DNA of 64,000 nt from the NCBI GenBank assembly GCA_000002435.2, contig CM018793.1. The stretch is one strand, 5' to 3'. Below, piece by piece: positions 15,801 through 64,000 of this stretch. The position numbers and the translations under genes are program-made. Each line of letters opens with the position of its first letter. Position 1 is the stretch's first letter. The stretch is from Giardia intestinalis. Lineage: Eukaryota. The notes under the pieces were generated by a model. That model searched no databases and had not been told where the DNA came from. It was given only the letters and a program-made list of their open reading frames with translations.

Positions 15801-18800
15801 GGTCCTGGAATGAGGGGTCGAACACTCAATGGTATCTCAAGAACGCTATGTCCATTGAGCTCATAACTAAAGTCAGAAACAGCAGCAGGAGAGGTCAGTA
15901 CCTGGAGTGGAGCATTACTAAGTTTGTTTATGAAGGGTCTGCACTCATAGGGTATGCTAATAACGACAGTAGTTTTCATGGGCGACTTATTGGTAATCGA
16001 TATCGTGCTGGTCTGCTCTGACGAAAAGGTGATATCCCCATAATTTATATAGCTAGGTCGGACATCGGCCTCAAGGTTACTTGTGCCAGCTCGTAATCCA
16101 TAGGAGTAGGACTCTCCCCCATCAATGGAGCATATCATTCTGCACTGATCTGTGCAGATCTCGTTTGTTTGGCCGACAAACGAAACATTGAATTTTGCCA
16201 GGTGGCCCGGAAGAAGGCCAGAGTTACCGTCCACGCCTAATGGAGTGATATCGTACTTGAACTTGTCCGAGCCTTGGGCCATTTGGAGAAGCCACTGGAA
16301 GCGAACCGGAAAACGGGAAATGTTCTTGCACAGTATTATCTGGGTTATGGTAGTGCCAACATTGGCCATTCCAAAGTCAATGATGCCCTTTTCAGGATCT
16401 GTAGAGGAGTTATCAAGCGGTAAGTCGTGCTTGGATGCTTGATTACTAAGGGCAGAATAAGCAGAATACATGTCTAAATTATGCTCCTTGAGGGTCGCCA
16501 ACGAACAGGAACGAAACTCGAGACTTGGGAAGAAGGCTGAAAGCTTCAGAGGCACTGCAACCGTGGGCACAGAAATGGGAAGTTGACCTGGAGGAAGAAG
16601 TCGGATTATAAGCGTAGAGTCAACAAACTTAGGCGTAGAGTCTGAACGAACGTAGTCTGTATCAACACTGATCTCTACGATACAGAATTCTTCTGAGTTG
16701 CCCTTCAGGTCTATAGACACCGTTTGTGCAAAGGCTGGAAAGTGCACCGGGCCGCCGAAAGTAATGGAGCAGGGATCAGTTGGTTGAATGGGTATTTCGC
16801 TGTCTTCTGATGTGCCCTTTTGCAGCCCAAGAGCTTGTCTGAAAGGGGAGCTCACATTGGCAGGCACTAGAGCACTGGCATCCTCATCTAGCTCATCGAC
16901 CGCATGATTTGATGCATCGCTGATAGTAGGTTCTTCGTCTCCATTGTTAGGAGGACATGCCACAGGAGCGCCATCTAGGCATTGCTCAATGGCGCATGGG
17001 GAAGGAGAATTATCTAGTGTTGCGGAAATGAAATCGCCACAATAGCCAGGATCATCAACCCTATCGGCAAGGCCTGCTTCAAGAGCTAGGGTATCGTGGA
17101 TATAGTGGCACACATGCTCATCATCCTTGGCTATAGCGCGAACCCGAAATGGGGCCTGGACAAGAATCTGCATCTTTCCAGGAAGACTGCTTGTATTCAC
17201 CAATTTTATAAACTTTGTTAGCTCGTGGTGTACGTAGTAGTAACCATCTGGTGAAACAAATTTCGCGAGGGGAACCGGCGGATCATTATTAAATGGAATA
17301 TTGTCTGCACCAAGAAATTGCGAAGTAACGTCTGCACGCTCAATGAAGTAATCTGGTGATGCAATAACTGGAAACTCTTCGTAAATAAAGTTTAGAAGAG
17401 AAGGGCGCTGTTTCTTGTTAGATACGCGTGTGCTGGGTCTATCTACAACAGAACCCGCGATACTTTCCGAAACATCAGTAATAGTCAGGGATGATTCAAC
17501 AGGCCTTCGAGTAACTTGTACGAGTGGCGCAGATCCTGGGCTTTGTCCTTTGCATACGAGTACAAGGTGTCGTTCAAGGAAGCTGTACTTTCCCAAGGAA
17601 AGAGGTTCGCAGCGCTCATGATAAAGTGAAGCAGTTTGCAGGCCTTCGTTCAAGGGCAGAACCATCTCGGAGGCAGTTACCTCTGCATTGATAAAACTAT
17701 AACAAAACGTGACCTGAAAGGCTACTTTAGTTTCCTTCCCGGGTACATTAGACTTCAGTTGATAGATCTCTCGACCGTTGGTGATAACAGACGGAACACG
17801 GCCCCTTAGCTTGAATGTATGGAAAGCCCCAGGTTGCAGCTGGACACGGTCTTGCTCGAATTTCAGGTAATGAGTGTTTCCTTGACCCTTTTTAACCCCG
17901 GGATTTCCTATGTAAACCCACGTGCAATTTTGGGCAAAGGCGCCGTGATTTTGAATAACAATGCTGTACTGCAGTTCCTCCGTGACAAACCACGTGCCAC
18001 AGTCAACGTTCGGTTCTTTGTTGAGATCTTGATGGGGGCATAGCAAGTTGGTCCCCTTTGCAGAGGCGTACATAGGCACTTTAATAACACTGCTAGTGGC
18101 CTTGATCGTATCCTCCGAGAGGCTGCAACTAGCATTCGCCAATGTCACATACACTAGCAGGTTCTCACGATAGGTACCTGCCTCAGTTGTGTAGAACGTG
18201 ATAGGAATGCTTGTTTCCTCGCCAGGGGCCACAAGCTTATCGCTAAACTCTTTCTCAATACTGAAGAAGGATCCGTGCTTTTCTGGAATCACTCTGCAGC
18301 GAGCAGAGGTCAGTCCGACGTTTTTCAGAGTGAGCGGTAGGTGCACCACGTCGAGAACCCTGACGTAAGACTCCTTGTTGTTCGGCCGAGTAAACTCCAG
18401 AGGGCCGCCGGCCTCTACACGGGGGCCTCTTGCAGAATACTGAACCATACAGGACAGCGTCTGCTTCTCAAAGGCGTCAGAGGTGAATGCAACTGGGATA
18501 ACCAAATGGCCCTGGGAGCGTGGGATGATTCCGCATTCAAGGGATTCTTCTGCACCAGGAAGAAGTACCCCACTCGCTTTGCTACAAGTAATTAGGCAAT
18601 TATCGAGAACATCTTGGACAGGAAAGCTCCAGTTACCTATCACAGACGCAACGTTCTTAATCTTAACGTTGAACGTATGCCTGTAACCAACGAACCCCTC
18701 TGCAATATTAATCACCGTGGGATCAATCTCAAACTTGGGATTGATGATTGATCCGATTATCTGAATAGTTTGTAGCGGGCGCTGAGAAGATGCGTGATAA

Positions 18801-40935: not shown

Positions 40936-42240
40936 ATGATCAAGGCGGTCATTCTTTTGGATGATGTAGGTGAGCTTATCTTGCAGCGCGTTTTTATGGG
41001 TTCGTTCGACAAGACAGCCCTGGACCTTCTTCGTACCCACGTCTTAGGAGGGTCAATTTCACAGCCTATCCTTAGAATTCCGCCCCACATATACGCATAC
41101 AAGAGGTGCGATGCACTCCACTTTTTCTGCACAATATCTGCCAAAACAGACACTATGTCCGCCATTACTTTCCTCGACCGTTTTTATAAGGCAATGGGGG
41201 CTTTCCTCAAGGAAAAGGAGCTGGCCGGAAATCTGAGGAAGTTTATTCCCCTTATCCATGAGCTTCTCGACGAAATGATCGACAATGGCGATGTGCAGAC
41301 GACCGATCCTGAGGTTCTCAAGCTCTTCATCCAGACCAGACAGAAAATCAATAAAGCGGAGGAGAGCAATCAGCAGATCACTGTCCAGGCAACCGGTGCT
41401 CTCTCCCACCGCCGCCAGGGAATTATTTACAAGCGCAACGAGATCTTCATCGACGTCGTTGAGTCTGTCAATGCCATGTTTAACAATGTTGGTCAGTCCC
41501 TCCATGCGGACGTCTCTGGAAAAATCATCATCAAGAACAGCCTCACAGGAATGCCGGACTGCTCTTTTGGGTTCAACGATCGTGTTGTCGGTGCTGGCGC
41601 TAACGGGCCGCGAACAGAGGTTGCACAGCAGGTCGCGGGTGTTAGCCAGGCGGGGGTCGTGATGGATGATCTATCCTTCCACCACTGTGTCCGCCTTGGG
41701 AACTTTGCTGTTGACAGGTCGATAGCCTTCGTTCCACCCGATGGTGAGTTCCAGCTTATGGCATTCCGCGTCACCGAAGAGGTCAAGGAGCCATTTTCAA
41801 TCAAGCCTATCGTCACCGTCCACGGGAGAAATCGCATGGAGATAGTCCTCAACTTGAGGTGTGGCATACCATCAAACAATGTCGCGGAGCACGTTATCGT
41901 CAGCGTGCCTATGCCCTCGAACGTCTCAGACGTCACCGCCATCGAATCACTCGGGAAGTGCAGGCTGCGAAAGGATGGCCAGGCAGCCGAGTGGCGTATC
42001 AAGTCGATCACAGGAGGCACCACTGCTACCCTTTCGATGGAGGTCCAGTGCGTAAGCTCCTCGTCCATAGACCTTCGTGAGTGGAGGAGACCTCCTCTTG
42101 CTATGAACTTTGATATTCCCATGTATACGGCATCTGGCATAGAGGTGCGCTACATAAGGATTATAGCCCAGGAAGGGTATGAGACTGAGAAGTGGCTGAC
42201 TTACAAGACAAGCGCGGGGACTTATCAGATTAGGTGGTAA
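40936..42240 (+). CDS. Clathrin adaptor complex medium (mu) subunit
   Basis: The N-terminal longin-like start is MIKAVILLDDVGELILQRVF. The mu-homology domain is closely similar to AP-1/AP-2 mu: IYKRNEIFIDVVESVN, FHHCVRLGNFAVDRSIAFVPPDGEFQLMAFRV, SGIEVRYIRII and YQIRW. ATG start. Confidence 0.8.
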   Translation: MIKAVILLDDVGELILQRVFMGSFDKTALDLLRTHVLGGSISQPILRIPPHIYAYKRCDALHFFCTISAKTDTMSAITFLDRFYKAMGAFLKEKELAGNLRKFIPLIHELLDEMIDNGDVQTTDPEVLKLFIQTRQKINKAEESNQQITVQATGALSHRRQGIIYKRNEIFIDVVESVNAMFNNVGQSLHADVSGKIIIKNSLTGMPDCSFGFNDRVVGAGANGPRTEVAQQVAGVSQAGVVMDDLSFHHCVRLGNFAVDRSIAFVPPDGEFQLMAFRVTEEVKEPFSIKPIVTVHGRNRMEIVLNLRCGIPSNNVAEHVIVSVPMPSNVSDVTAIESLGKCRLRKDGQAAEWRIKSITGGTTATLSMEVQCVSSSSIDLREWRRPPLAMNFDIPMYTASGIEVRYIRIIAQEGYETEKWLTYKTSAGTYQIRW

Positions 42241-42373
42241 CTGCACGAAGTTCTTTGCGCGGCCTGTAAACCCAATCTTTAATCCACTGCTACAGTGCAC
42301 ATTTTCTCTCTTTTGCGCCCATTTTTCTAAAAATGTGGTTCAAAAGTTTTGCCAAGAAATTAATTGCGCAGAT

Positions 42374-45300
42374 ATGAGCATTAGGACCCTGGAGGACTGG
42401 TTTGGGGCTATCGAACGCGGAGATCTGCGTCGTGTCCAGGACCACCTGGACGTCTTCGGTGATAGTGTCGATAGGGACGGAGAAACAGGCCTTATGAAGG
42501 CCGTGAGAAGCAACAACGTGGACATCGCTAGACTCCTTATTTCAAAATGCGCTGGCCAGACGAATGAGAATGGACTGACCGCGCTGATGATAGCGGCCCT
42601 GGAGAATAAGGGCGAGATGTGCAGCCGTCTCGTTATGGACGAGAACGACATCACCACAAAGGAGCAGCAGACGGCGCTTATGCTCGCTGCTGGAGCCGGT
42701 GCCACAGATGCCGTTCAGGCTCTTTTGCCCTACCAGAAGGGTAGGCGCGACGCTCGAGGCAGGACCGCCTTGATGTATGCTGCAGAGGCGGGGCATCTGG
42801 TGATCGCAGAAGCTCTTCTGCCCCGGGAGAAAGCCATGATCTCGCACGATGAGAAGACAGCGCTTATTCTTGCTGCAGAGAATTGCCACACTGAGGTGGT
42901 TGGGCTGCTCACCCAGCACGAGTCGTCGCTGCTTCCTGACGCCACTAGACAGGTTTTCCTCAATTATTCCGAATCTGAGCACGTCAATCTCGATGTCAAT
43001 ATGCAGCTCATAGACGTCATGCGTAGCTCATCTAACTCTTTAGTCCCTCCAAAGACTGCCCTTGAGACAGAGCTGGAGGCTAGAATTAGGCAGCTCGAGA
43101 TGCGCCTTGTGACGCTCCATGATCAGTCTTCTGTGGTGCTTGGTGAGAATCTGGGGCTGCACAAGACCATCGGCTCTTTACAAGAGAACATAACCACATT
43201 TAAGCTACAGATTGACGGTTTACTTGCCGAAACGGCCGATAAGAGTGCTATCATACAGAACTTGGAGCGTCGATTGCAGGAGATACGCAACTCTCCCAAC
43301 GGACCTGCTGCAGCTGCAGCGATGTTGGATGCTGCTTCTAGCCTGTCTAACCTTCGGTCTGGTAAAGATGACGCAGAGAGGTACGATCGGATTCTCGCGG
43401 ACAAGGATGCCGAGATTTCTCGCCTTCAAGATCTTCTGAATGAGGCTGCTCGTGCGCTTCCGCCGCTGAGTCCTTATGTTGACAACGGGCTTAATGCGGA
43501 CCTTGAGCAACTCCGGGCCCAGTTATCGGACTATATAGCAGATAACGCACAGAAAGACAAAACAATCCAGCAGCTTCGCAGGGAGCTCCAGGAAGCACAA
43601 CAGAACGCGCAGGTTGTTAACTTGGATGACGCGAAAGGTGACGTGGCTAGGCTCCTTGCTGAACGCAGTGCACTGAAGAAGCGCATCGAAGATTTAGAGG
43701 GGATTAACTCGTCACTTCAGCGCCAGTTGGACTTCAACACTGAAAAGCTCCACGAGAAGGATGCTGAGATCAATGAGCTTGATACGCGCTGCCGTGAATA
43801 CGCCGGAGAAATCCAGTCTCTTTCCAAGCAGCTTGTAGACGCCGAAGAGCGTGCAGCCGAGGAGATTGCTGCTCTGCATGATAAGCTCATTAGCAAGGAT
43901 GCCGAAATATCGAACCTCTCTGATGAACTTCAGGCTGCGCGAGCCATTGCTGAGGCCAAGCTTGCTGCCGCGGAGGGCATGGTGGAGCAGCTTCAGAAGA
44001 GAGTGCATGATCTTGAGAATGATCTCATAGCTCTTCAGGTGGGAGGAAGCAACACTAGGGCAAGCCCAGAACAGGATGAAGATGCAAAGCGCAAACTCCA
44101 AGCCGAGATCGACAGACTCAAAGAGTTGGCTGATCTCCGCGAAGAAGAGGCTGCTGGACTTCGTAAGGAGGTGGGTGATCTTACGGATGAGTGCGAGAAG
44201 CTGCGCAATGCGTTTCTCAATGCCCCCACAACGCGCACCGTTATCGATGAAGCATCGAGCACTGATGCCAAGGTAGCCCACTTGCTTGAGCAGCTTGATG
44301 ATGCTAGTGCGCGCATCAGGGACCTTGAGAACGCGCATGCCGGAAAGGATGAGGTTATCAAGACTCTGCGTAAGCAACTGGTTGGAAAGGCTACTGACCC
44401 AGAGATGGCTAACCAGCTCCTTAGGAAGGAAGAAGAGCTAGGAGACTTCAAGGCAAGACTTGCTGATGCAATAAGGGAAATCTCAGACCTGCGCAGCAGC
44501 GCTCGTGACGCTGAGGATCTTCAGCAGGCGCTCGACAAAGCAACAACTGATTACGCAAAACTTATGGAGGACTTCGATGAACGCGAGCAAGAGATCAAGC
44601 GTCTCCGTGACGAATTGCGTGATGCAGAAGATGCAGACGAACTTAAGAACCAGATCCTTTGTCGGGACGCCGAGATCACAGACCTCAAGAATGACCTTGC
44701 TGAGAAGGAGGACACCATCACAAGCCTTCAGAACCAGCTCAGCGTACAGCCCACCACGAGCACCATCGTTGAGGAGGGTGGAAGCGATATGGAAGATGCG
44801 GCAACAATCAAGGAGCTTCAGAGCGAGAACCAGTTCCTTCGCGAGGCTCTAGAGTCAGAAAGGCAGACGAATTCTGAAAAAGATAAAGAAATCCAAGGAA
44901 TGGACACAGAGCTCGCCAGGCTCAGGCTCCGCCTCGATGAGAGCCTCCCCGCTCTCGACACCTTGCGCAGTGAGGTGGAGCTTCTCAAGTCCACCATGGA
45001 GGACAAGGACAGGGAAATTGTCGATCTCAAGAATACCCTCGATGAGCGCGCGACAGATGTTCCAATCGAGACTGTTGATGCTCTCAACGCCATGCTGGAG
45101 GACATTAATCAAGAGCTTGCCGTCTCGAAGCAGGAAGTCGAGCGCCTCAAGGACCAGCTTGACGACAAAGAGAAGAACATGGCTGACATGCGTCTCAAGG
45201 AGCGTCAAAAGGAGGCCGAGCTGGACGAACTCTCGAACATGATTCAGGCCAGTATGGTTGGGCCGGACAAGGCTGCGGAAATGACTGCCTTGCAGGATGA

Positions 45301-45493
45301 AATCCGTAGCCTTCACAACAAGCTTGCAGCCAATGAGTCAGAGATAGAGCAGACAAAGGACGATTTACTAAAGAAGCAAGAGGAGATGGAAAGACAGGCA
45401 GCTGCCATATCGTACTACCAACAATTGGTGGAAGACCTACGTGCTGGAATAGCCACATTAGACGACAACCTAGCGTCTATTCAGCCACAATAA
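42374..45493 (+). CDS. Ankyrin-repeat plus long coiled-coil protein ('Protein 21.1'/axoneme-associated type)
   Basis: The N-terminus carries ankyrin units GETGLMKAVRSNN, GLTALMIAALENK, QQTALMLAAGAGA and GRTALMYAAEAGH. About 850 aa of E/K/L-rich heptad sequence follow, with the reiterated motif KDAEI(S/N/T)xL. The ORF-table start at 42335 is GTG, and the first ATG is at 42374. Confidence 0.75.
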   Translation: MSIRTLEDWFGAIERGDLRRVQDHLDVFGDSVDRDGETGLMKAVRSNNVDIARLLISKCAGQTNENGLTALMIAALENKGEMCSRLVMDENDITTKEQQTALMLAAGAGATDAVQALLPYQKGRRDARGRTALMYAAEAGHLVIAEALLPREKAMISHDEKTALILAAENCHTEVVGLLTQHESSLLPDATRQVFLNYSESEHVNLDVNMQLIDVMRSSSNSLVPPKTALETELEARIRQLEMRLVTLHDQSSVVLGENLGLHKTIGSLQENITTFKLQIDGLLAETADKSAIIQNLERRLQEIRNSPNGPAAAAAMLDAASSLSNLRSGKDDAERYDRILADKDAEISRLQDLLNEAARALPPLSPYVDNGLNADLEQLRAQLSDYIADNAQKDKTIQQLRRELQEAQQNAQVVNLDDAKGDVARLLAERSALKKRIEDLEGINSSLQRQLDFNTEKLHEKDAEINELDTRCREYAGEIQSLSKQLVDAEERAAEEIAALHDKLISKDAEISNLSDELQAARAIAEAKLAAAEGMVEQLQKRVHDLENDLIALQVGGSNTRASPEQDEDAKRKLQAEIDRLKELADLREEEAAGLRKEVGDLTDECEKLRNAFLNAPTTRTVIDEASSTDAKVAHLLEQLDDASARIRDLENAHAGKDEVIKTLRKQLVGKATDPEMANQLLRKEEELGDFKARLADAIREISDLRSSARDAEDLQQALDKATTDYAKLMEDFDEREQEIKRLRDELRDAEDADELKNQILCRDAEITDLKNDLAEKEDTITSLQNQLSVQPTTSTIVEEGGSDMEDAATIKELQSENQFLREALESERQTNSEKDKEIQGMDTELARLRLRLDESLPALDTLRSEVELLKSTMEDKDREIVDLKNTLDERATDVPIETVDALNAMLEDINQELAVSKQEVERLKDQLDDKEKNMADMRLKERQKEAELDELSNMIQASMVGPDKAAEMTALQDEIRSLHNKLAANESEIEQTKDDLLKKQEEMERQAAAISYYQQLVEDLRAGIATLDDNLASIQPQ

Positions 45494-49452: not shown

Positions 49453-50587
49453 TTCTACAGAGTGTTAAAACTATAGTTACGAACTCAGATAGAAATTCTG
49501 AATTTATTAGAGAGATGTGATTTATTTCTCCTCTGACTCCCGCTATGCCTCACTTCTCTTTTAACTAGAACTATGGTAATCATTATACGTACGTCAGGAG
49601 AGTGTTTTGTCAGGTGGAGGTACTAAGCAGAGACCGGATCATCACTAGATTGTTCAGGTAAAACACCCGGCTGAGCCGTCCCCCAAGGTGGTCTCTCATT
49701 GGTTTCTGGTCCACCGCTAGGCTCTGGTAGAGAAGAGGACCTGGCGATTCCCTCTTTGGGTACCACCAGCTCACTGCCCATATTATAGAGATTAGCCCTA
49801 TCATTCACCAACGCCCCAGAGTCAGCAAGCAGCCACCAATAGAGCTTCTTGATGACGCGTTTACTATCTAAGCCACACCTTCATGTGACACACGGACCAC
49901 CAGCCGAGGACCCCGACAACGACGTCCTCCATTATCCCAGCATGCCTTGTGACCTGGCTTGTGTGACCTTCGGCTTGTCCCTGTCACTGAACGCACCCTT
50001 GGAGCCAGACGAGCGAGGACCAGTGGTCGACCGCAGCAGAGGATAAGGCCCAGTTCCTGTTAGAGTAGAGGTCATGGAGAGGTAGCTGAGGGCGCCTGTG
50101 GCTGGGATCAGATGGATTGGGCTTTCAGTGTAGACCAACACGCATCGTTGTTCCCTGAGGAAGACAGACATTATCCCTGAGCATAAGAAGAACTTTCAAG
50201 CAGACAGTGAAGCCTGACAATTCACAGAACTGGATCATCTACGTTCACTTTCAGATCAACTGTGCTCAGCCCCTTGTTGCTACACTTTGGCGTCTTTCGG
50301 GGAGGGATGATTATGCACTGAAGAGACAGTACTTTAGATAACGTTTCTTGTGAGTAAGCATGGGAGTAATTGTACGTAGCCTATGATGACTTTTAGCAAG
50401 AGTGTATCGCTACGGTGGAACCGTGCCAAGAGTTCCCTGAGCACACCTAAGTCATATGTCCAGTCGTATTGTGCTACGAATAAGTAGCTATAGCTAGGTA
50501 TCCAGCGGATAAGCTATCAGTAAACCCTGCCTCTCTGTGGAGAATAAGTGTTGCTTACTTTCTAAAAAAGGGTTTAAGCATTTTCTT

Positions 50588-55468: not shown

Positions 55469-56008
55469 ATGGGGTTATTTGACCTCATCAGGAGACACCG
55501 GAAGGGTAAGAAAGAGATCCGAGTGCTGATTCTCGGACTAGATAACTCTGGCAAGACCACCATTTTACGTAAGCTTTGTGAAGAAGACACGTCTGTCATA
55601 ATGCCTACCCAAGGATTCAACGCAAAAACAATCAAGGGGCCCAAGGGTGTTAGTCTAAACTGCTGGGATGTGGGCGGGCAAAAGGCGATTCGAACGTACT
55701 GGCAAAACTACTACGCTGGCACTACCTGTCTTATTTGGGTCGTAGACGCAGCAGACGTCAAGAGAATGGACGAAGTAGCACTTGAAGTATCGCTTGCCTT
55801 GGAGGATTGCAGACTTGCTGGTGTCCCCATTCTAGTTTTCGCAAATAAGCAAGACCTAGCGACAGCCCTGAAGCCAAGCGATCTTTGTGACAAAATTGGA
55901 CTATGGGCTCTGCGAGATCGCGTTTGGCATATCCAAGGCTGCAGTGCTTTAACTGGCGAAGGCCTTGAAGAAGGGATCCTATGGATGGTCAGTAAGACTG
56001 ACAAGTAG
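55469..56008 (+). CDS. ARL2: ADP-ribosylation factor-like GTPase ARL2
   Basis: The sequence MGLFDLIRRHRKGKKEIRVLILGLDNSGKTTILRKL...PTQGFNAKTI...LNCWDVGGQKAIRTYWQNYY...LIWVVDAADVKRM...FANKQDL...IQGCSALTGEGL aligns near-colinearly with human ARL2 (LGLDNAGKTTIL, PTLGFNIKTL, NIWDVGGQKSLRSYWRNYF, IQGCSAVTGE). The ORF-table start at 55463 is TTG, and the ATG is at 55469. Confidence 0.85.
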   Translation: MGLFDLIRRHRKGKKEIRVLILGLDNSGKTTILRKLCEEDTSVIMPTQGFNAKTIKGPKGVSLNCWDVGGQKAIRTYWQNYYAGTTCLIWVVDAADVKRMDEVALEVSLALEDCRLAGVPILVFANKQDLATALKPSDLCDKIGLWALRDRVWHIQGCSALTGEGLEEGILWMVSKTDK

Positions 56009-56016
56009 AGCAAAAA

Positions 56017-56541
56017 TTATTGCTCGTAAAGGTCTTTATTTATGTTCTGTGCGTAGTTCTTTCTCTTAGCAATGAGAAGTTTAGAGGGTAGGATAGACTC
56101 TATGTCAATGTCTTCTATAGCAACTTTCGTAGAGGGAAAGCTCTCCAGCATCATGGTGGTAAGTAAATCTGTCGTTTCTAGTGCTTTCTGGACTTCTTTT
56201 CGAAGACACTCTTGGATTTCTGGGATGTTAGCGTCCATATATGCAGTAATTATTTTCCCAAGTTCAGAGAGGGTGCGTTTCTTCGTTGGAAGAAGCGTTG
56301 CTATGTGAATATGTGGCTGCAGAATAGTGAGTTCATAAACGTCTGGGCGCTTCTTATAGTGCCTTATCGATAGCCTAAAAGGACAGCCTGCCCAGTTTGC
56401 ACAGTGATAATCATCTTTCCAAAACTCCGTTCTGTGACGTCGTCCACGAGAGAGCACCAGTTTAGAGTTCGTTCTAAGCTGATGCGACAGAAGAGTAGAG
56501 GAAAGATCTGAAGCTGACACTGTAAATGAAACCCCGTTCAT
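56017..56541 (-). CDS. Small protein with a divergent WRKY/GCM1-fold zinc-finger DNA-binding domain
   Basis: HCANWAGCPFRLSIRHYKKRPDVYELTILQPHIH has the geometry C-x5-C-x23-H-x-H and the conserved AGCP.R. and T.Y...H.H. Compare WRKY YYRCTSAGCPVRKHVER......VITTYEGKHNH. The canonical WRKYGQK heptad is absent. ATG start. Confidence 0.5.
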   Translation of the reverse strand: MNGVSFTVSASDLSSTLLSHQLRTNSKLVLSRGRRHRTEFWKDDYHCANWAGCPFRLSIRHYKKRPDVYELTILQPHIHIATLLPTKKRTLSELGKIITAYMDANIPEIQECLRKEVQKALETTDLLTTMMLESFPSTKVAIEDIDIESILPSKLLIAKRKNYAQNINKDLYEQ

Positions 56542-58502
56542 TTTCTTTCTTGATATCTTAAGTTGCTTGGAAGAGTAGATCCCTGTCTTGAATATCTGAG
56601 TCTTGTAACTTATACACTAGACCCGTATGTTAGCATTTATTATCTTTGTGCGGGGATGGTATCGAAAGTTCTTAGAACCTCTCTATGGTGCGCACGGCGA
56701 TGACCGCTGTACATGGAGTCAGTAGATTCCACCAGAGGCACTTGTAGACTTCACACCTGCAGGAATCGGAGACTCGGACAGTCTGTCTCCTCTGTGCTCT
56801 GCGGGTTCTCCGGTGTCTTGCAACGCTGCTATCCTGAAAGGTGTCTGGAAGGAGAATCTTCTTGAGCAGCAGGAGCACCATGGGGCCACCACTCACAGGC
56901 GACAAGCGGCTGCAGTCGGCCCTTCCCTGCGTGTCCCTCGTACGGGCCGCTCCTTATTGCATAACAACGTGTCATGCCAATGGGGTGATATCCACTACCC
57001 AAACAGGCCGGTAGCGGTCCTGGCTGTCTGAGGCACTGTCCCACTATGTGCCTCCACCAACGCCGGCCCCACCCATGTGCCAGCTGCTGCATGGATTCCT
57101 TGCTTGACGCGGCCTGCAGGGGGAGTAGAGCCTGTTCTCCTGCTGGGTCACCGCGCATTGCTGGGGGATGCACCGGACAAGTATCTCGAGTGTCGGACGA
57201 ACCGGCCGGGGCAGGCACCCGCTCGATAACCTGCCCAGTACGGGCACAGGCCTGTCCTGCCACACAGTCGCTCAGGCGGAGTCCTCGTCACTTCCTGACA
57301 TTGATCCGTTGAAGGCGAGCTGCATGACCGACAGGAGCAATCGTGCAGCTGGGTCCCGCTGTGCCATCGCTCATGCTTGATGAGCTACGTGGCCAACGGG
57401 AGACGTGCTGGCAAGGGATTTCCTGGTCTCGCCATGAGTCAGGTCGCCGTCACCCTTGTTACCTCTACAACAGCAGGGCAGGTGCTGGGGATGTTCATCG
57501 TAACCTCAGGCTTGCCAATATCGTCGCGTCTCTGACCTCGGCCTCTGCAGGAGCGTCCTGTGACGGTGCGAGTGAGACCTCCACGCACTGTAGCTCCCCG
57601 CATAGGGCGGGCTCCCAAGGCTGCACCAGGGCCACTAGCTGCTGCCCAAGGATGTCAGACCGCCACTAGGGGTCTGCTCAGGGAGCCGCAAGGCAGCACC
57701 AGCAGACTGCTCCCAACGGTGGTGCTCTTTACGCTATCGAGACGGAGGCGCCGTTCTTTGTCCTTTGCCTCTGCTGCTGTGTTAGGGCTTGATCTACCGG
57801 GCCTGGCAGGAATAGCGGTACCAGAGGGTGCTACCATAGCAGGCGTCCCGGTGCGTCTTCCGGCAGGATGGATTGCCACACAATGGAGAGTATGGTTGAA
57901 AACCCTGCTGCTTACGGGAAACCAGTTCGGACCGCCTGCTGTCTTGGTGTGGCCGTGCTGCCCAGCTGGATCAAGGTAGTAGTCCCACTGAAACCCGTCA
58001 CCTTCACGGGCAGCTTTGACCTCTTTCGTCTTCATGGGAGCAGCTCCCCTGTTCTTATCTACGCGCCATCCTTGTGTATCATAAGCGCCTCTTTTGCCTC
58101 TGGCTGTCCTGCACCACCGCCACATCAACAAGGCGCCTTTGTATGCACTTCGTCCGGCTATAGTAGCATCTCTGGCCATCTTCTACCCTTTTGAAAAGAA
58201 ACGGCAGATTTACTCATGGGCCGCAGAGCAGTCCAAAAGTCAGTGTGACAGCGACACCAGGTGCACTGCTCCTAAAGGGAGACACTACCTCAAACCAGCC
58301 CTATTGTGCCTGTTTCCCCTCTCCTCCTGCGTACTGCACCCATGAGGACACCCGGCTGTGACTAGCATGCCCGTCGCTTTCACGTTTCAGTGGCTGTGCA
58401 GTGCTGCTCGTACGAGTATCACGGCTCTGTCCGTACTGGCTGGGCCGTACTGCCCTCGCTATCAACTAGATTCTCCTCGGGATCAAAGGGAGGCGGCGAT
58501 CA

Positions 58503-59850
58503 TCAGGTAGTCCAGCCGTTCTTGTCCTGGAGGCCCCTCTCCTCCCCAACAAGCAACTCGACGGGATCAGCGTGCCCCTGCTGGGCCGCGTGCATGAGGG
58601 CCGTCATCCCCTGTGCGTCACGCTGACCAACACCGAGTCTTTCTTCAAGCAGCATCCAGACGGTCTCCGTGCTATTCGTATGCGCGGCACGCATCAGCCT
58701 GGGCAGCAAAAAGAGGCTGGACTGAGGGTCAGTCGTGTTCATCCTGTCACTGAACTGTGCAAGCCTATTCTCCAGTGCCTTAATCATAGCTAGATGTTCC
58801 TTACTTTGGTCTTCAAGTGCGTCGATCTTAGTAGATCTAGTCTTAACATCCTCTTCCAGCAACGCGATCCTGGCGTTAGCGCCATTCAGCGCAGCCTCCA
58901 AGGAGCCGCACCTGTACCTCAGCATCACGCACTAGCCCCCAGCTCACTAACTGGAATGTCGAATGTAGTGAGCGTCTCGTGCAGCTCCCTGGCCGTCGGC
59001 CTCCTCTCTGGCTCCAGCACGAATATCCTCTCCAGAACATTCTGCATGAAGCCATCAGTGAGACCGCTCAGGTCCGGCCTCCACCCATCGATGAAGACCT
59101 CTGCCGGCTCCTTGCCCCCCAAGAAGTCCGGTCTCCTCAGAGTTACTAGTTCATAAATGATGACCCCGAGGCTCCACACGTCGGAGGCGGGGCTGGCCTC
59201 GTTGTGGAGGAGCACCTCGGGGGCAACGTATGCCATTATTCCTATGAGAGTGCTCCCACTCCACAGGGCGTCCCTGCAGAGGCCGAAGTCGGCGATGACG
59301 AAGCGCTCCCCGTCTTCGCTGATGAGGACGTTGGCAGGCCTGAGGTCGCAGTGGACAAACCTCCTAGTATTTGCTCCATTGATGCTGTGGAGGTAGGCGA
59401 GGGCAGCGGCGAGCTGCCTCACAATTGAGAGGATTATAGTGATAGGGATGAGAGTCTTCCTTCGTTTGTGCTCGGTGAGGAGGCGCTCGAGGGTCTTGTC
59501 GTGCCGGTCCGTGACGACGTAGATGAAGCCCCCGTCCTCGACTACTTGATGGTACCTGAAGACCCCCGGGTGGGAGAGGTCGGGGAGGGTGGTCAGCTCT
59601 AGTCTGATCTCATCTACACTGTTTTTGTCCAGGCCCCCAAGCTGAATGACCTTTACAGCGAGCTCCAGATAGCTTTGAGAGAGTAGACCTTGCTCATGAA
59701 GCCCCTGCCCAACACGCTATCCAGCCGCTCGTGGAGGTCCCTGATGGTGAACTGCGGGGCACTGACAGCTGTTGTTGCAGGCTCAGACGAGGCAGTGTCC
59801 ATCCTGGTATTATTTTGGTAATCTACCGTTTTGGAAACGATCCTTTCCAC
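58503..59850 (-). pseudogene. Disrupted NEK kinase / coiled-coil / ankyrin gene in a GC-rich context. At least two frame changes and a truncated ankyrin domain.
   Basis: Frame A (59850->59653) encodes the kinase start ...FTIRDLHERLDSVLGRGFMSKVYSLKAIWSSL* with a TAA at 59653-59655. Frame B (open from ~59700 down to 58925) continues as ELAVKVIQLGGLDK...HPGVFRYHQVVEDGGFIYVVTDRHDKTLERLLTEH...FVHCDLRPANVLISEDGERFVIADFGLC...YVAPEV...DVWSLGVIIYELV and stops. Frame C (58928->58503) encodes a coiled-coil followed by ankyrin units GMTALMHAAQQGH and NGWTT*, which terminates after ~1.5 repeats. No frame extends further. Confidence 0.6.
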
Positions 59851-60140
59851 AGGAGTTTATGTCTACAAGTCTACAGCGGCCCTGTATCTGTGGGGGCTTC
59901 TGCATAGGAGATGAGAAGGCCACCTGCGCGACCGTTTCACCCACCGGCGTTCCAGTGCTGACCGGGGGTGAAAAGGCCTGTTCCCCTTGACCTCTGCGGA
60001 AACGGGCAGCTGTGTGACCCACTGACGGCCACCACTTCATTGAGGTGTCTGTTTGCTGCACAGCTGGAGGGAGATTCTAGTCCATCGTCGGATGCAATCA
60101 ACAGTTAAGCGCGTTCACTCACGGGCTTTCTGGATAGTAT

Positions 60141-60776
60141 TCACAGGCAAGGATCCACTAGCCTAATGCCCTTATTTTCAAGAAAAGACGCCACCTCGGG
60201 GTGACCTCGTGTACTAGCCATACAAAGAGCAGACTCGCCGCCTACGTCCTTCTCTCTCTCCAGCAGTAACTTGACACAGTCCAGACGGCCAAAGCCTGCT
60301 GCAGCTGTGAGGGCGGTAACACCTCCGTTTATTTGCATGCCTCCCTCAACATCCAGGAGTAGTTTCACGACCTCGGTGCGGCCAACAAGTGCCGCCCACA
60401 TGAGGGCTGTCCATCCATTACTGCTCCTCATACCGCCCTCGCACCTCATCAGCAGCTTCACCACTCTGGTGTGTCCAAGCACCGCAGCGACCATCATGGC
60501 TGTCCCCCCACTTATGTCTACTCTCCCTGTCTTGACAAGCTTCGCCACCATCCTTGCCTGATAAGGGATGTAGCGCTTCACCGCGTCCACGTCGTTTCGT
60601 CTGGCCGCCTCCATAAGTGTGGTGACGCCGTCCTCATCCACGCTGCCTTCATCATCTGTTTGTGGAGACTCAGTTGGGTTTCCCGCGCCCTCTTCGCTTG
60701 CGTCCTTCTCAGACATGAGGAGTAAGGCGCAGTCGCACTCCTGAAGGAATTGATCTAAGTCATCCATAGACAACAT
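60141..60776 (-). CDS. Stand-alone ankyrin-repeat protein (211 aa, 'Protein 21.1'-like) in the GC-rich block
   Basis: ATG start. The repeats are GVTTLMEAARRND, GGTAMMVAAVLGH, GWTALMWAALVGR, GVTALTAAAGFGR and GESALCMASTRGH. The N-terminal 55 aa are acidic. Confidence 0.6.
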   Translation of the reverse strand: MLSMDDLDQFLQECDCALLLMSEKDASEEGAGNPTESPQTDDEGSVDEDGVTTLMEAARRNDVDAVKRYIPYQARMVAKLVKTGRVDISGGTAMMVAAVLGHTRVVKLLMRCEGGMRSSNGWTALMWAALVGRTEVVKLLLDVEGGMQINGGVTALTAAAGFGRLDCVKLLLEREKDVGGESALCMASTRGHPEVASFLENKGIRLVDPCL

Positions 60777-61341
60777 TTTTACTCCGGGTCACATAGAACG
60801 CGTGTGGCAGTACGCCTGCAATTCCTGGGCCTCTTGCAGCGCATCCAGATGGCGCATCATAAGCGGACTGCATGCCTTGAATTCCTTCCGTTGCCCCTGC
60901 TATGTGTAGCAAGGTGCAACAAAGTGACTATTGGGATTCTGAAGCCTAGAGCCCCCTTTACAAGCCGTGGTGTGCATCCGTTCCCACCACACGGACCATC
61001 ATGCTGAGGAAACACGTCCGCTTGGAAGGCAGTAAACGCTCCACTCCAATCTTAGCGCACGCCTTGCACGGCGGCAACCACCTGGTCGGTAGTCTGCGTG
61101 CGCGAACTCCCTGATGGTCTGAAGCAGGCCATGTCTCGCTGCAAAACCTTGCCCCTGGCTGGAAGAATGCCCTGCAGGCAACGGCTTAGCCGCGCTGTGA
61201 CTGCCTCTGCACCCATCTGCCCGGGCTGTTGCGAAGACTCGAGGTGAGAACAGCTCGGGGTCCCCATAGCAGCGAGCATGTGGCCAAGAGAACAGCCCGA
61301 CTGTTTGCCCGGGGCTGACGTGCAGATGGCGTCGCAGAGCT

Positions 61342-62688
61342 ATGGACCTCAGTCTTAAAATGAGCGCCCTGGAGCGCGCGGATGTCTCTTCTGGGGATAC
61401 CGCTGCCCACGCCCCCGGATCCCCCCTGTGCGAGTGGAGGGCCGAGCTTGACGCCCCAGTCATCGCTGCGGTGGTTGCGCGAGTCTGCGGTAGGGACGCT
61501 GTCGTGGCGCTAACCACGCGGGGCCGGGCCCCCATCGTCCATGCAATCGCCTCCAAGGGCATCAGCGGCAGCAGAAGTGTCTGCAGCCTCGGACGCGCCG
61601 CTCCGGGGGAGCCCCTGACCGCGGTCTGCGCCCTGGATGAGCGGGTCTTCCTCGCCTCTGTGTCGGCCATCTACGAGCTCGTGGCAGGCTCTCATCGAAC
61701 GCATCGCCTAGTTCTGCTCTACCCCGCGCGGGACATCCCCTGGCCCATCCGAAGCCTCTCTGCCGAGAGGTGCGGAGCCGCAATTGTCCTCGTCGCTACG
61801 TTCGGGCTCCCAGCACAGGACCCGCAAAGCACGGGCCTTCTACTGCTCTGCCTGCGTGGTGGGTGTCCCCAGGCAACTGTCCTCCCCGTCTCCGTCGCTG
61901 ACACTGCCTGCCCCTCTCTGCGCTACGATCCGGCCTCCTCCCTCCTCTATGTCCTGGCCCCCACGACTGATGCAGGAGTCGTTCTGTGCTGCGTCTGCTT
62001 CCAGGAGCCCGCAACTTTGGACCTGGTGCTACGGGGGTTCGAGTGGTTCACTCAGACCGGCACGGAGTTCTACATGTCCCGGGTTGTTATCTCGAGCCCC
62101 GAGGAGCATCTCTCGTACCGCTGCAAAGAGGGTCCTGAGCTTGCAGAGGCGCAGGTCGGGGCCGTCTGCATGTGTGGCACCTCGGCTGTCGTCGCCGTGT
62201 CGGCCGTTTCCGAGACCGGCGAGCGCTCCGATCTGCCGGTCCTCCTGGTCGTCTCCGGCCTGCTGTCGCATCTCTCGTTCTCCACGATAGAACTCGATGA
62301 CTTCGGGGCCCAGAACCTACCCCCGGAGTCTGAGTCGTTCCGCATCTTCTCTCTGTCCCCATCCTCGGCTGCCCCGGGAACCCTCTGTCTGGCCTTCTGC
62401 AAGGGAAGCCTCCTCCACTTCCACAGGATGCCCGTGGAGAGCGGCACAGACGGCCCCCGCTCTGTCAGCACGTGCGAGTTGGTCCCTTCGACACACACGT
62501 TCTGCGCCCTGTACGAGACAGAAGGGGCCTTGCGGTGCGTCTTCACGGCCGTGGATGGAGCGCGCCTGTTCCTCTGCATGGCGAGCATGCAGGTGAGTTC
62601 CGGCCGTCGCGCTGGGGTCGGGGGGAGGTCGCAGAAGGGCCAGGAGGGGAAGCAGAGGAAGCACAAGGCACGGGTCAGCGATGCGTAG
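61342..62688 (+). CDS. Orphan GC-rich ORF (448 aa), hypothetical. The coding status is uncertain.
   Basis: ATG start. This is the longest ORF in a ~65% GC segment where both strands give long spurious ORFs. The plus-strand product has a more protein-like composition (V/L/E/F/Y/C) than the Arg/Ala/Ser-rich antisense ORFs 60999..61670 and 62070..62987. Confidence 0.35.
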   Translation: MDLSLKMSALERADVSSGDTAAHAPGSPLCEWRAELDAPVIAAVVARVCGRDAVVALTTRGRAPIVHAIASKGISGSRSVCSLGRAAPGEPLTAVCALDERVFLASVSAIYELVAGSHRTHRLVLLYPARDIPWPIRSLSAERCGAAIVLVATFGLPAQDPQSTGLLLLCLRGGCPQATVLPVSVADTACPSLRYDPASSLLYVLAPTTDAGVVLCCVCFQEPATLDLVLRGFEWFTQTGTEFYMSRVVISSPEEHLSYRCKEGPELAEAQVGAVCMCGTSAVVAVSAVSETGERSDLPVLLVVSGLLSHLSFSTIELDDFGAQNLPPESESFRIFSLSPSSAAPGTLCLAFCKGSLLHFHRMPVESGTDGPRSVSTCELVPSTHTFCALYETEGALRCVFTAVDGARLFLCMASMQVSSGRRAGVGGRSQKGQEGKQRKHKARVSDA

Positions 62689-63017
62689 GGCTGTCTTTCC
62701 GCTGCCCAGTGCATACAAGGGTGCGCACAGCCACGACCGTCGCGCAGACGAGCCAATGGCAGGAGCGGGCCCGCACCTCTTCCTGCGCCGTGGAGTCTGA
62801 GGATCCGAGCTGGGGTCCCGGGGATGACACACGGCTGCAAGGGCATGCATGGGAGACACACAGGGACACAGACACGCAGGTGCACCTCTTCAGCGTCCCA
62901 CAAACGGATGCTCTCGTGCAGAGACCAAGCGGGTCTGTGAATGAGGCCCACGAGAGCCCAGAGATCGGGCACCCACTGCTCACCCACGCTAGAGCACCGC
63001 CCACATGTCCATACAGC

Positions 63018-63024
63018 ATTTACT
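63018..63024 (-). other. Putative poly(A) signal AGTAAAT, 15 nt downstream of the VSP stop codon
   Basis: The reverse complement of 63001-63043 reads cgTAGatgtagacttaggtAGTAAATgctg, which matches the Giardia AGTRAAY consensus. Confidence 0.5.
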
Positions 63025-63038
63025 ACCTAAGTCTACAT

Positions 63039-64000
63039 CTACGCTTTGCCCCGGCAGAGGAACCACCAGCAGAGGAAGCCGACGAGGCCCCCGACGACGA
63101 TGACAGCGGCCACAGCGATGCCAGCTATGGCGCCCGTGGAAAGGCCGCTCTTGTTGACGCTAGAAGATATGCACCTGTTCTGTCCGGCGACCGGGCCGTA
63201 TCCTCCCTCGCACTCGCACACCTTCTGGTTGGGGGCAGAGTTCGGCGGGCAATCTGCGGCACAGCTCTTCCCGTCGACCTGTATGTTGTGAGAACTGTCG
63301 GTGCATGCCGTGCAGGTCTGGTCGGCAGGGTTGCAGGTCTGGCAGCCCGCCGCACAGCCTGCGCTAGGATTCTGTTCGCACCTGTTCTGTCCGGCGACCG
63401 GGCCGTATCCTCCCTCGCACTCGCACACCTTCTGGTTGGGGGCAGAGTTCGGCGGGCAATCTGCGGCACAGCTCTTCCCGTCGACCTGTATGTTGTGAGA
63501 ACTGTCGGTGCATGCCGTGCAGGTCTGGTCGGCAGGGTTGCAGGTCTGGCAGCCCGCCGCACAGCCTGCGCTAGGATTCTGTTCGCACCTGTTCTGTCCG
63601 GCGACCGGGCCGTATCCTCCCTCGCACTCGCACACCTTCTGGTTGGGGGCAGAGTTCGGCGGGCAATCTGCGGCACAGCTCTTCCCGTCGACCTGTATGT
63701 TGTGAGAACTGTCGGTGCATGCCGTGCAGGTCTGGTCGGCAGGGTTGCAGGTCTGGCAGCCCGCCGCACAGCCTGCGCTAGGATTCTGTTCGCACCTGTT
63801 CTGTCCGGCGACCGGGCCGTATCCTCCCTCGCACTCGCACACCTTCTGGTTGGGGGCAGAGTTCGGCGGGCAATCTGCGGCACAGCTCTTCCCGTCGACC
63901 TGTATGTTGTGAGAACTGTCGGTGCATGCCGTGCAGGTCTGGTCGGCAGGGTTGCAGGTCTGGCAGCCCGCCGCACAGCCTGCGCTAGGATTCTGTTCGC
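63039..64000 (-). CDS. Variant-specific surface protein (VSP), 3' portion. The N-terminal part lies beyond the window edge.
   Basis: The C-terminus is ...GLSTGAIAGIAVAAVIVVGGLVGFLCWWFLCRGKA, that is the VSP transmembrane helix plus the invariant CRGKA tail. The Cys-rich extracellular part carries CXXC motifs (CQTC, CTAC). The TAG stop is at 63039-63041. Confidence 0.85.
   Translation of the reverse strand, partial: EQNPSAGCAAGCQTCNPADQTCTACTDSSHNIQVDGKSCAADCPPNSAPNQKVCECEGGYGPVAGQNRCEQNPSAGCAAGCQTCNPADQTCTACTDSSHNIQVDGKSCAADCPPNSAPNQKVCECEGGYGPVAGQNRCEQNPSAGCAAGCQTCNPADQTCTACTDSSHNIQVDGKSCAADCPPNSAPNQKVCECEGGYGPVAGQNRCEQNPSAGCAAGCQTCNPADQTCTACTDSSHNIQVDGKSCAADCPPNSAPNQKVCECEGGYGPVAGQNRCISSSVNKSGLSTGAIAGIAVAAVIVVGGLVGFLCWWFLCRGKA
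63171..64000. repeat. Perfect 207-bp tandem repeats (at least 4 copies, continuing past the window edge) inside the VSP coding region. Each encodes the 69-aa unit CECEGGYGPVAGQNRCEQNPSAGCAAGCQTCNPADQTCTACTDSSHNIQVDGKSCAADCPPNSAPNQKV.
   Basis: The identical plus-strand ORFs at 63301, 63508 and 63715 are spaced exactly 207 nt apart. The sequence gcacctgttctgtccggcgaccgggcc recurs at 63171, 63378, 63585 and 63792. The final 25 nt of the window restart the unit. Confidence 0.9.

Follow-up and report, generated by a model that had tools for sequence, protein, structure and literature searches.

The window analyzed here is the whole 64,000-nucleotide stretch of Giardia intestinalis WB DNA (assembly GCA_000002435.2, contig CM018793.1), the last part of which forms a GC-rich and gene-poor block that ends in a gene for a variant-specific surface protein (VSP). 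The arrangement of the features in Table 1 shows a compact core that closes with an ARL2-like GTPase gene and a Giardia-specific gene, followed by DNA without a recognizable gene in which a small kinase relic is embedded, a NEK kinase-ankyrin pseudogene, a solitary ankyrin-repeat gene, the hypothetical gene GL50803_112695, and the 3' part of the VSP gene GL50803_112693. The original prediction, made from the letters of the window alone, described a synteny-breaking variable region of VSP, NEK, and Protein 21.1 genes, and this description is supported by the cross-lineage comparison and by the presence of the same block in a table published with the genome of the assemblage E isolate P15 (Jerlstrom-Hultqvist et al. 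2010, PMC3091692). Additional file 9 of that paper lists WB CH991768:598018-605607 as "Insertion of gene cluster in WB" opposite P15 contig59(25091), with the VSP GL50803_112693 and the hypothetical proteins 112695, 112696, 98653, and 31797 as its content. This very locus has already been described, and the refinements given here are incremental: the island is bounded, its origin is shared by assemblages A and E, one of its passenger genes is real, it contains a relic of a kinase and a tract of mosaic divergence, and its GC effect is regional.

Table 1. Features of the island and its left flank, by position in the window
Feature	Position	Strand	Evidence
ARL2-like Arf GTPase, core flank gene	55469..56008	+	Pfam Arf E=2e-58
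174-aa Giardia-specific hypothetical protein, ortholog of GLP15_1894, last core gene before the island	56017..56541	-	homologs
Island boundary	56557..56686	.	end of cross-assemblage homology; GC change-point
GC-rich (0.52-0.65) non-coding stretch, spurious open reading frames	56700..58502	.	flat GC at the three codon positions, flat codon-position substitutions, stops in isolate DH
Decayed NEK kinase catalytic-core relic (HRD loop to DFG)	57435..57562	+	two collinear blastn matches to pseudogene sense strand
NEK kinase-ankyrin pseudogene	58503..59802	-	frameshifts ~59,675 and ~58,935; truncated ankyrin array
Ankyrin fragment of NEK pseudogene	58503-58928	-	Pfam Ank_2 E=8e-10; separate reading frame from kinase
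Pkinase C-terminal half	58925-59422	-	Pfam E=4e-25
Hyper-divergent tract versus DH	59000..60500	.	50-nt mismatch profile, sharp edges; ~22% different versus 4-5% in rest of island
Solitary ankyrin-repeat protein (Protein 21.1-like), 211 aa	60141..60776	-	Pfam Ank_2 E=3e-33; initiator gtaaaaATG
GL50803_112695, conserved fast-evolving hypothetical gene, 448-aa reading frame	61342..62688	+	exact match to XP_001708048.1
VSP-specific extended polyadenylation signal ACTTAGGTAGTAAATGC	63016..63032	-	exact motif match, 6 nt past TAG stop
VSP GL50803_112693 (vsp51, TR207), 3' part	63039..64000	-	Pfam VSP E=1e-21; open to window end

Gene content of the block

The in-window translation of the VSP comprises 319 aa with eight CXXC motifs and 13% cysteine, which is the Cys-rich ectodomain characteristic of PF03302, and its C terminus (...GGLVGFLCWWFLCRGKA*) has the transmembrane segment and CRGKA tail of that family. 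The repeat-containing VSP of the original prediction is confirmed by the Pfam match and by four perfect repeats with a period of 207 nt (69 aa; 4.0 copies at 100% identity, Tandem Repeats Finder), which run past the window end and hence number at least four. The polyadenylation signal falls within the 0-15 nt past the stop codon reported for the VSP motif ACTTAGGTAGT[AG]AA[CT]GC (PMC3091692). A VSP is further recognized by an N-terminal signal peptide and a TAATGTT or CAATGTT initiator (Inr); the 5' end of this gene lies outside the window, and the Inr TAATGTT is recorded for it in Table S1 of Adam et al. 2010 (PMC2996952), where it appears as vsp51, TR207, on chromosome 5. In the same table the gene has two copies of the 207-nt repeat and a product of 258 aa ending in CRGKL, in contrast with the larger repeat number and CRGKA tail seen here; the repeats were likely collapsed in the older assembly, and the CRGKL entry may be an error. 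In-frame perfect tandem repeats are also present in vspA6/CRP170 and vspC5 (PMC2996952), and the extended polyadenylation signal is shared too. As in vspC5, the vsp51 repeats extend to the conserved transmembrane/CRGKA 3' region, whereas the repeat unit itself differs from those of other tandem-repeat VSPs in being gene-specific.

GL50803_112695 had been taken for an orphan reading frame, a status that does not hold because orthologs are present in assemblage B and in two low-GC lineages and WB itself has a paralog, GL50803_113433, with 93% amino acid identity on the 1.54-Mb chromosome. The full-length homologs are 92% identical in an A2-type genome, 58% in assemblage B (GSB_150369 and QR46_0956), and 54% and 49% in the two low-GC lineages, and the three assemblage A copies are equidistant from one another at 93-95%. 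An exact-product look-up of the 448-aa sequence returned no record, but the sequence is present in the protein collection. The current annotation places the start at M7 (position 61360), and an AT-rich initiator precedes this codon. The GC fractions at the first, second, and third codon positions (GC1, GC2, and GC3) of 0.65, 0.54, and 0.78 display coding periodicity, and the ratio of nonsynonymous to synonymous substitution rates (dN/dS) is 0.47 compared with the A2 isolate DH and 0.28 compared with assemblage B. In assemblage B and the low-GC lineage the ortholog adjoins a convergent gene of 229/238 aa, and its neighborhood in the low-GC lineage is compact and of housekeeping character. Judged from these comparisons of sequence, 112695 is a real, conserved, and fast-evolving gene. 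An AlphaFold2 model calculated with five sequences has a mean pLDDT of 44, and its Foldseek matches are all β-propellers with a TM-score of ~0.3; the protein may tentatively be described as β-propeller-like, a statement that carries no functional claim.

The solitary ankyrin protein noted at the outset is substantiated by its Ank_2 match; the DH ortholog has 221 aa and is 73% identical, and an exact-product look-up of the 211-aa protein returned no record. The frameshifted NEK-ankyrin pseudogene that had been proposed is likewise borne out, with both a Pkinase and an Ank_2 domain found and a 386-aa DH kinase ortholog that matches the WB sequence in three frames. No continuous kinase-then-ankyrin reading frame of the kind expected for a NEK with ankyrin repeats is present, and since the kinase is split over three frames the locus is a frameshifted pseudogene. 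Only ~2 ankyrin repeats are left, and the ATG at 59802 is preceded by an AT-rich region.

The ~2 kb between the core and the pseudogene had been described as having no recognizable gene, which is correct in that no gene is found there and no Pfam domain occurs in six frames of 56.56-58.5 kb (or of 60.78-63.04 kb), but a small inverted kinase relic lies within. The long overlapping open reading frames (ORFs) on both strands that had also been pointed out are present, and none of those at 56.8-58.4 kb has coding periodicity or a third-position substitution bias; most are interrupted by stop codons in DH. The non-coding stretch is 92-98% identical to DH, and positions 57554-58196 align with P15 (4914-5592 of locus L007) at 65% identity over 688 nt (E=2e-66). 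The kinase relic spans ~130 nt with a 25-nt internal deletion and is inverted compared with the pseudogene, to which it aligns in two high-scoring segment pairs (pseudogene 59421-59324, 66% over 98 nt, E=3e-6; and 59295-59262, 82% over 34 nt, E=1e-4) corresponding to the peptides GDVHRNLRLANI and SDLGLCRSVL. At the protein level the single pairs score no better than shuffles, and significance is reached at the DNA level only, where the pairs are collinear; a collinear inverted relic in the DNA thus indicates a former inverted copy of the kinase. A tblastn search of the window gave no relics beyond those reported here; its queries were VSPs, the ORFs of the P15 island, the CFAP74 neighbor, and the neighbors of the low-GC 112695 ortholog. 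An Rfam scan of the whole window gave no family.

Edges and composition of the island

Loci in other lineages were found through exact-protein look-ups and the end points of homology were taken from blastn, with L007 denoting P15, L008 a putative assemblage B contig, and L009 the low-GC lineage. Homology with P15 (88% identity), the putative assemblage B contig (78%), and the low-GC lineage (73%) ceases in all three at 56,557-56,580, so that alignment to other assemblages, proposed as a check on the original prediction, reveals the loss of synteny at the edge that is typical of published islands (PMC3091692). The two core genes before this point had been read as an ARL2 and WRKY-like pair. The ARL2 part stands, with an identical protein copy in many assemblage A assemblies and 0/0/3 substitutions by codon position compared with DH, but the WRKY-like part is not supported, as Pfam at E<=1 yields only noise (CelTOS and Imm68) for the 174-aa protein. 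Homologs of this boundary protein are 97% (P15), 89%, and 84% identical, and an AT-rich initiator precedes its ATG.

A distance of 572 nt separates the boundary gene of the low-GC lineage from the ortholog of GL50803_30448, which is followed by CFAP74, and no island is present at the site. Since the boundary gene and the 30448 ortholog are neighbors there, the block is an island bounded by a core gene on either side. In WB, KAE8305249 (112695) and KAE8305251 (30448) share the 4.02-Mb contig with space for one protein between them, presumably the VSP. At the end of DH contig 81, which carries the 30448 ortholog, a VSP start codon with its signal peptide (MLVGFLLVCATVLA) is directed away from that ortholog, and the DH island contig (contig 55) terminates within the VSP without its 5' end. 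A partial VSP polyadenylation-like motif, GGTAGTAAACGC, common to DH and WB-like contigs, is located upstream of the 30448 ortholog on the strand facing 30448 (L014 ~375-392 and L016 ~80-97) and may be what is left of another VSP 3' end at the distal margin of the island.

Short-read contigs of >20 samples stop at 56,705 or 56,871, which is 160-330 nt from the boundary gene, and break again 300-380 nt upstream of GL50803_30448 (loci including L003/L006, L002/L005, and L016-L019), and public short-read assemblies systematically fail to cover the island. Such breaks, together with the 211-aa ankyrin product that has no exact copy on record and a VSP repeat number that varies by assembly (two in the old, at least four here), could be taken to mean that the GC step and the pseudogene are assembly artefacts produced by a chimeric join or indel errors. 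This is scarcely plausible given that the independent 454 assembly of DH crosses the boundary with the same gene order, that the WB annotations of 2007 and 2020 give the same 112695 sequence, and that the 2010 table has the same genes in the same order (PMC3091692). The position of the breaks on both sides of the island is consistent with duplication and allelic variation, and contig breaks are explained by the duplication and higher allelic variation reported around VSPs (Xu et al. 2020, PMC7000408), where VSP regions are described as gene-poor and 6.9% of the WB genome as duplicated.

The GC profile was calculated in 1-kb windows and a single change-point was placed by maximum likelihood. 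The GC fraction averages 0.477 over 1-56 kb (sd 0.022, maximum 0.528) and 0.604 over 57-64 kb (minimum 0.548), with all 1-kb windows past 57 kb exceeding all those before 56 kb, and the sliding-window plot that had been suggested is clearly not uniform. The GC jump of the original prediction is real and abrupt (0.477 to 0.602 across the change-point) but starts at 56,686 rather than at 56,542, and the rise therefore begins ~150 nt later in intergenic DNA beyond the last core gene. The 60-65% GC ascribed to the block is not uniform, as 200-nt windows in the island span 0.50-0.71. Coding density changes at the same edge: from the list of maximal ORFs, ~96% of 1-56.5 kb lies inside ORFs, whereas 39% of the island is intact gene (57% with the pseudogene included), in agreement with the gene-poor block that had been noted and with the low coding density reported around VSPs (PMC7000408). 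The spacing of 2-130 nt claimed for the core is matched by gaps of 2-129 nt with the single exception of 1,084 nt at 49,453-50,536, and the description of this part as housekeeping is too simple, as NEK and ankyrin genes occur there too (~34, 36-38, 42-45, and 53.7-55.4 kb).

The island genes have GC3 values of 0.59-0.78 compared with 0.42-0.58 for core genes, giving the raised G+C and atypical codon usage of published islands (PMC3091692). The island kinase has a GC3 of 0.75 compared with 0.44-0.47 in the core NEK genes at a similar GC2, and the non-coding DNA of the island has a GC of 0.58-0.65. The orthologs of 112695 have a GC3 of 0.32 in the low-GC lineage, 0.60 in assemblage B, and 0.78 in assemblage A, with overall GC of 39% and 54% in the first two and 66% in the WB window. 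The GC excess is located at silent and non-coding sites and is hence regional.

The P15 genome paper describes VSP regions as richer in G+C, unusual in their codon usage, and broken in synteny, and it attributes the islands to VSP and high-cysteine membrane protein (HCMP) genes (PMC3091692). The GC-rich gene-free DNA could on that basis be decayed VSP or HCMP coding sequence, its composition being a ghost of Cys/Gly/Thr/Ala-rich genes and not a product of regional mutation; the intact VSP here is 64% GC and arrays with pseudo-VSPs are common (PMC2996952, PMC7000408). Such an origin is nevertheless unlikely. Five VSPs used as tblastn queries have no match in 56.6-63.0 kb, no frame of the two unannotated stretches has a Pfam VSP match, the sole recognizable relic is kinase-derived, and non-VSP genes are GC-rich at third positions (kinase and 112695) with ordinary GC2. 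In a difference with the published attribution, the excess lies outside VSP coding sequence, and because it falls at silent and non-coding sites that sequence alone is insufficient to account for the island. For the composition a regional process is preferred, plausibly GC-biased conversion tied to ectopic recombination.

Further observations were made in the core part of the window. The only long core gap, 49453-50536, contains a VSP polyadenylation signal with two mismatches at 49857-49873 (minus strand) and shows no GC rise, and a VSP gene occupies exactly the equivalent position in P15 (GLP15_1898) and also in the putative assemblage B contig. The 2010 table lists this site as "VSP insertion P15" (PMC3091692), but a VSP in B and E together with a relic of the signal in A suggests that the gene was lost in assemblage A rather than inserted in P15. 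A 5-kb plateau of ~52% GC at 40936-45493, a milder shift in composition, comprises an ORF of 434 aa and an ankyrin/coiled-coil gene of 1052 aa with GC3 of 0.58-0.62 and has no VSP, and a single ORF of 6,458 aa occupies 19 kb at 872-20248 (minus strand). The low-GC Giardia lineage (L009-L013 and L020-L022; ERR3333379-82 and SRR17450158/60), which is probably assemblage C or D, has a GC of ~38% in core genes and ~30% in intergenic DNA, compared with ~48% in core genes of assemblages A, B, and E.

Age, mosaic divergence, and proposed evolution

The island is syntenic in the A2 isolate DH with the same gene order. In P15 the DNA beyond the boundary is also GC-rich (56-68%) and shows weak but collinear similarity to the window over the 57554-58196 stretch, the ankyrin repeats, the C terminus of 112695, and the 3' end of the VSP, and the P15 island has no NEK. 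This collinear similarity means that the WB and P15 "insertions", which are listed separately in PMC3091692, are diverged versions of one ancestral island, and as read from the alignments the island is older than the split of assemblages A and E. The block had been called lineage-specific, and it does break synteny and is missing from the low-GC lineage, but its presence in DH and, in diverged form, in P15 shows that it is not private to WB.

An alternative would be a recent WB-specific insertion by a retroelement or by transposition, as the published label "Insertion of gene cluster in WB" might suggest. Retroelement sequences are reported at non-syntenic positions (PMC3091692), and in P15 two isolate-specific ORFs beside the boundary gene (L007 7183-9829) form the remnant of a non-LTR retroelement (LTR, long terminal repeat; RVT_1 E=2e-8 with C2H2 fingers) at the synteny breakpoint. 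This remnant is absent from WB and DH, no reverse transcriptase similarity is detected in the WB block by tblastn or six-frame Pfam, and a recent insertion does not fit a block that is collinear in DH and has a homologous counterpart with four segments in order at the same site in P15, which makes it highly improbable.

The island has a mosaic pattern of divergence within assemblage A. Identity between WB and DH is ~98% in the core, 92-98% at 56.75-58.5 kb, and 93-98% at 61-62.75 kb, whereas it drops to only 74-84% in the tract at 59.0-60.5 kb, in which the kinase and the larger part of the ankyrin gene are located. Synonymous divergence (dS) in the tract is 0.41 for the kinase and 0.44 for the ankyrin gene, compared with 0.036-0.068 for core genes and 112695, and the tract dN/dS is 0.35-0.40. 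Two further controls, orf1055 and NEK576, were left out of this comparison because a 2-nt offset had shifted their register. From these dS values and the sharp edges it follows that WB and DH hold non-orthologous versions of the tract. The published table also contains another WB cluster arranged like the island, with NEK 42698, Protein 21.1 95847, 113433, and VSP 8595, at CH991763:1166942-1174099 (PMC3091692). The island therefore appears to have a paralogous copy of identical gene order on another WB chromosome, and the CH991763 cluster would be the obvious candidate donor of the tract.

Taken with its proposed evolution, the block is very probably a VSP island situated between two core genes on the 4.0-Mb chromosome of Giardia intestinalis WB, which is chromosome 5 in the numbering of Adam et al. 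The cassette would comprise ~7.6 kb plus the repeats, with non-coding DNA, the NEK pseudogene, the Protein-21.1-like gene, 112695, and VSP 112693 flanked by the GLP15_1894 ortholog and GL50803_30448. Its working part would be the one repeat-bearing VSP with a canonical 3' signal, belonging to the repertoire of antigenic variation, and the remainder would be passenger and debris. The island may have evolved by non-allelic recombination or gene conversion with paralogs, a process that could account for the A1/A2 mosaic, the pseudogenization, the inverted relics, and the short-read breaks, and GC-biased repair may have enriched G+C at silent and non-coding sites.

Several points weigh against this interpretation. 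The 112695 family evolves fast in all lineages, with assemblage B and the low-GC lineage 51% identical, and the island is not the only setting in which it diverges. Duplication of the whole cassette, beyond the 112695/113433 pair, is deduced from gene order in the published table, and GC-biased gene conversion is likewise a deduction. The linkage of DH contigs 81 and 55 is taken from their orientation and a 33-nt match. The island may have been gained in A/E or lost in the low-GC lineage, and G. muris, which is not syntenic here, gives no polarity.

More generally, Giardia VSP islands might be zones of GC-biased gene conversion through ectopic recombination among paralogous cassettes, in which trapped sequence turns GC-rich and evolves fast, although this is doubtful at present. 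If true, the trapped sequence would be exemplified by 112695, the pseudogene of the kinase, and the non-coding DNA, the WB/DH tract (dS ~0.4) would be a footprint of conversion, and recombination could be read from the sequence of the islands in an organism where sexual or parasexual exchange is still debated. A literature search on GC-biased gene conversion in Giardia VSP regions returned nothing specific.

Relation to other antigen gene regions

The island resembles those described in PMC3091692 and PMC7000408 in its raised G+C, atypical codons, low coding density, and synteny break at the edge, in having a VSP alongside NEK, Protein 21.1, and hypothetical ORFs, and in its higher variation and duplication. 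No categorical difference from these islands is found, but the flanks are shown here to be adjacent in another lineage. The small internal island (~8 kb) with a single VSP and shifted GC may also be compared with antigen gene regions of other parasites. The antigen genes of Plasmodium (var/rif clusters) and Trypanosoma brucei (VSG arrays) are found apart from the syntenic core, in regions that turn over fast, are prone to recombination, and contain many pseudogenes. The likeness would be in the setting apart of antigen genes from that core, whereas the size, internal position, VSP number, and GC shift distinguish the Giardia island, which is not known to have an expression-site architecture.

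Islands of this class are established as the places where Giardia stores and renews its surface antigens and where its compact syntenic genome breaks. The present locus is a clean worked example with both core flanks identified and adjacent in another lineage, and within it one "hypothetical" passenger gene is, on the comparative evidence, real and conserved. With versions open to comparison in A1, A2, and E, the island could be a test case for how such islands originate, exchange sequence, and become enriched in GC.

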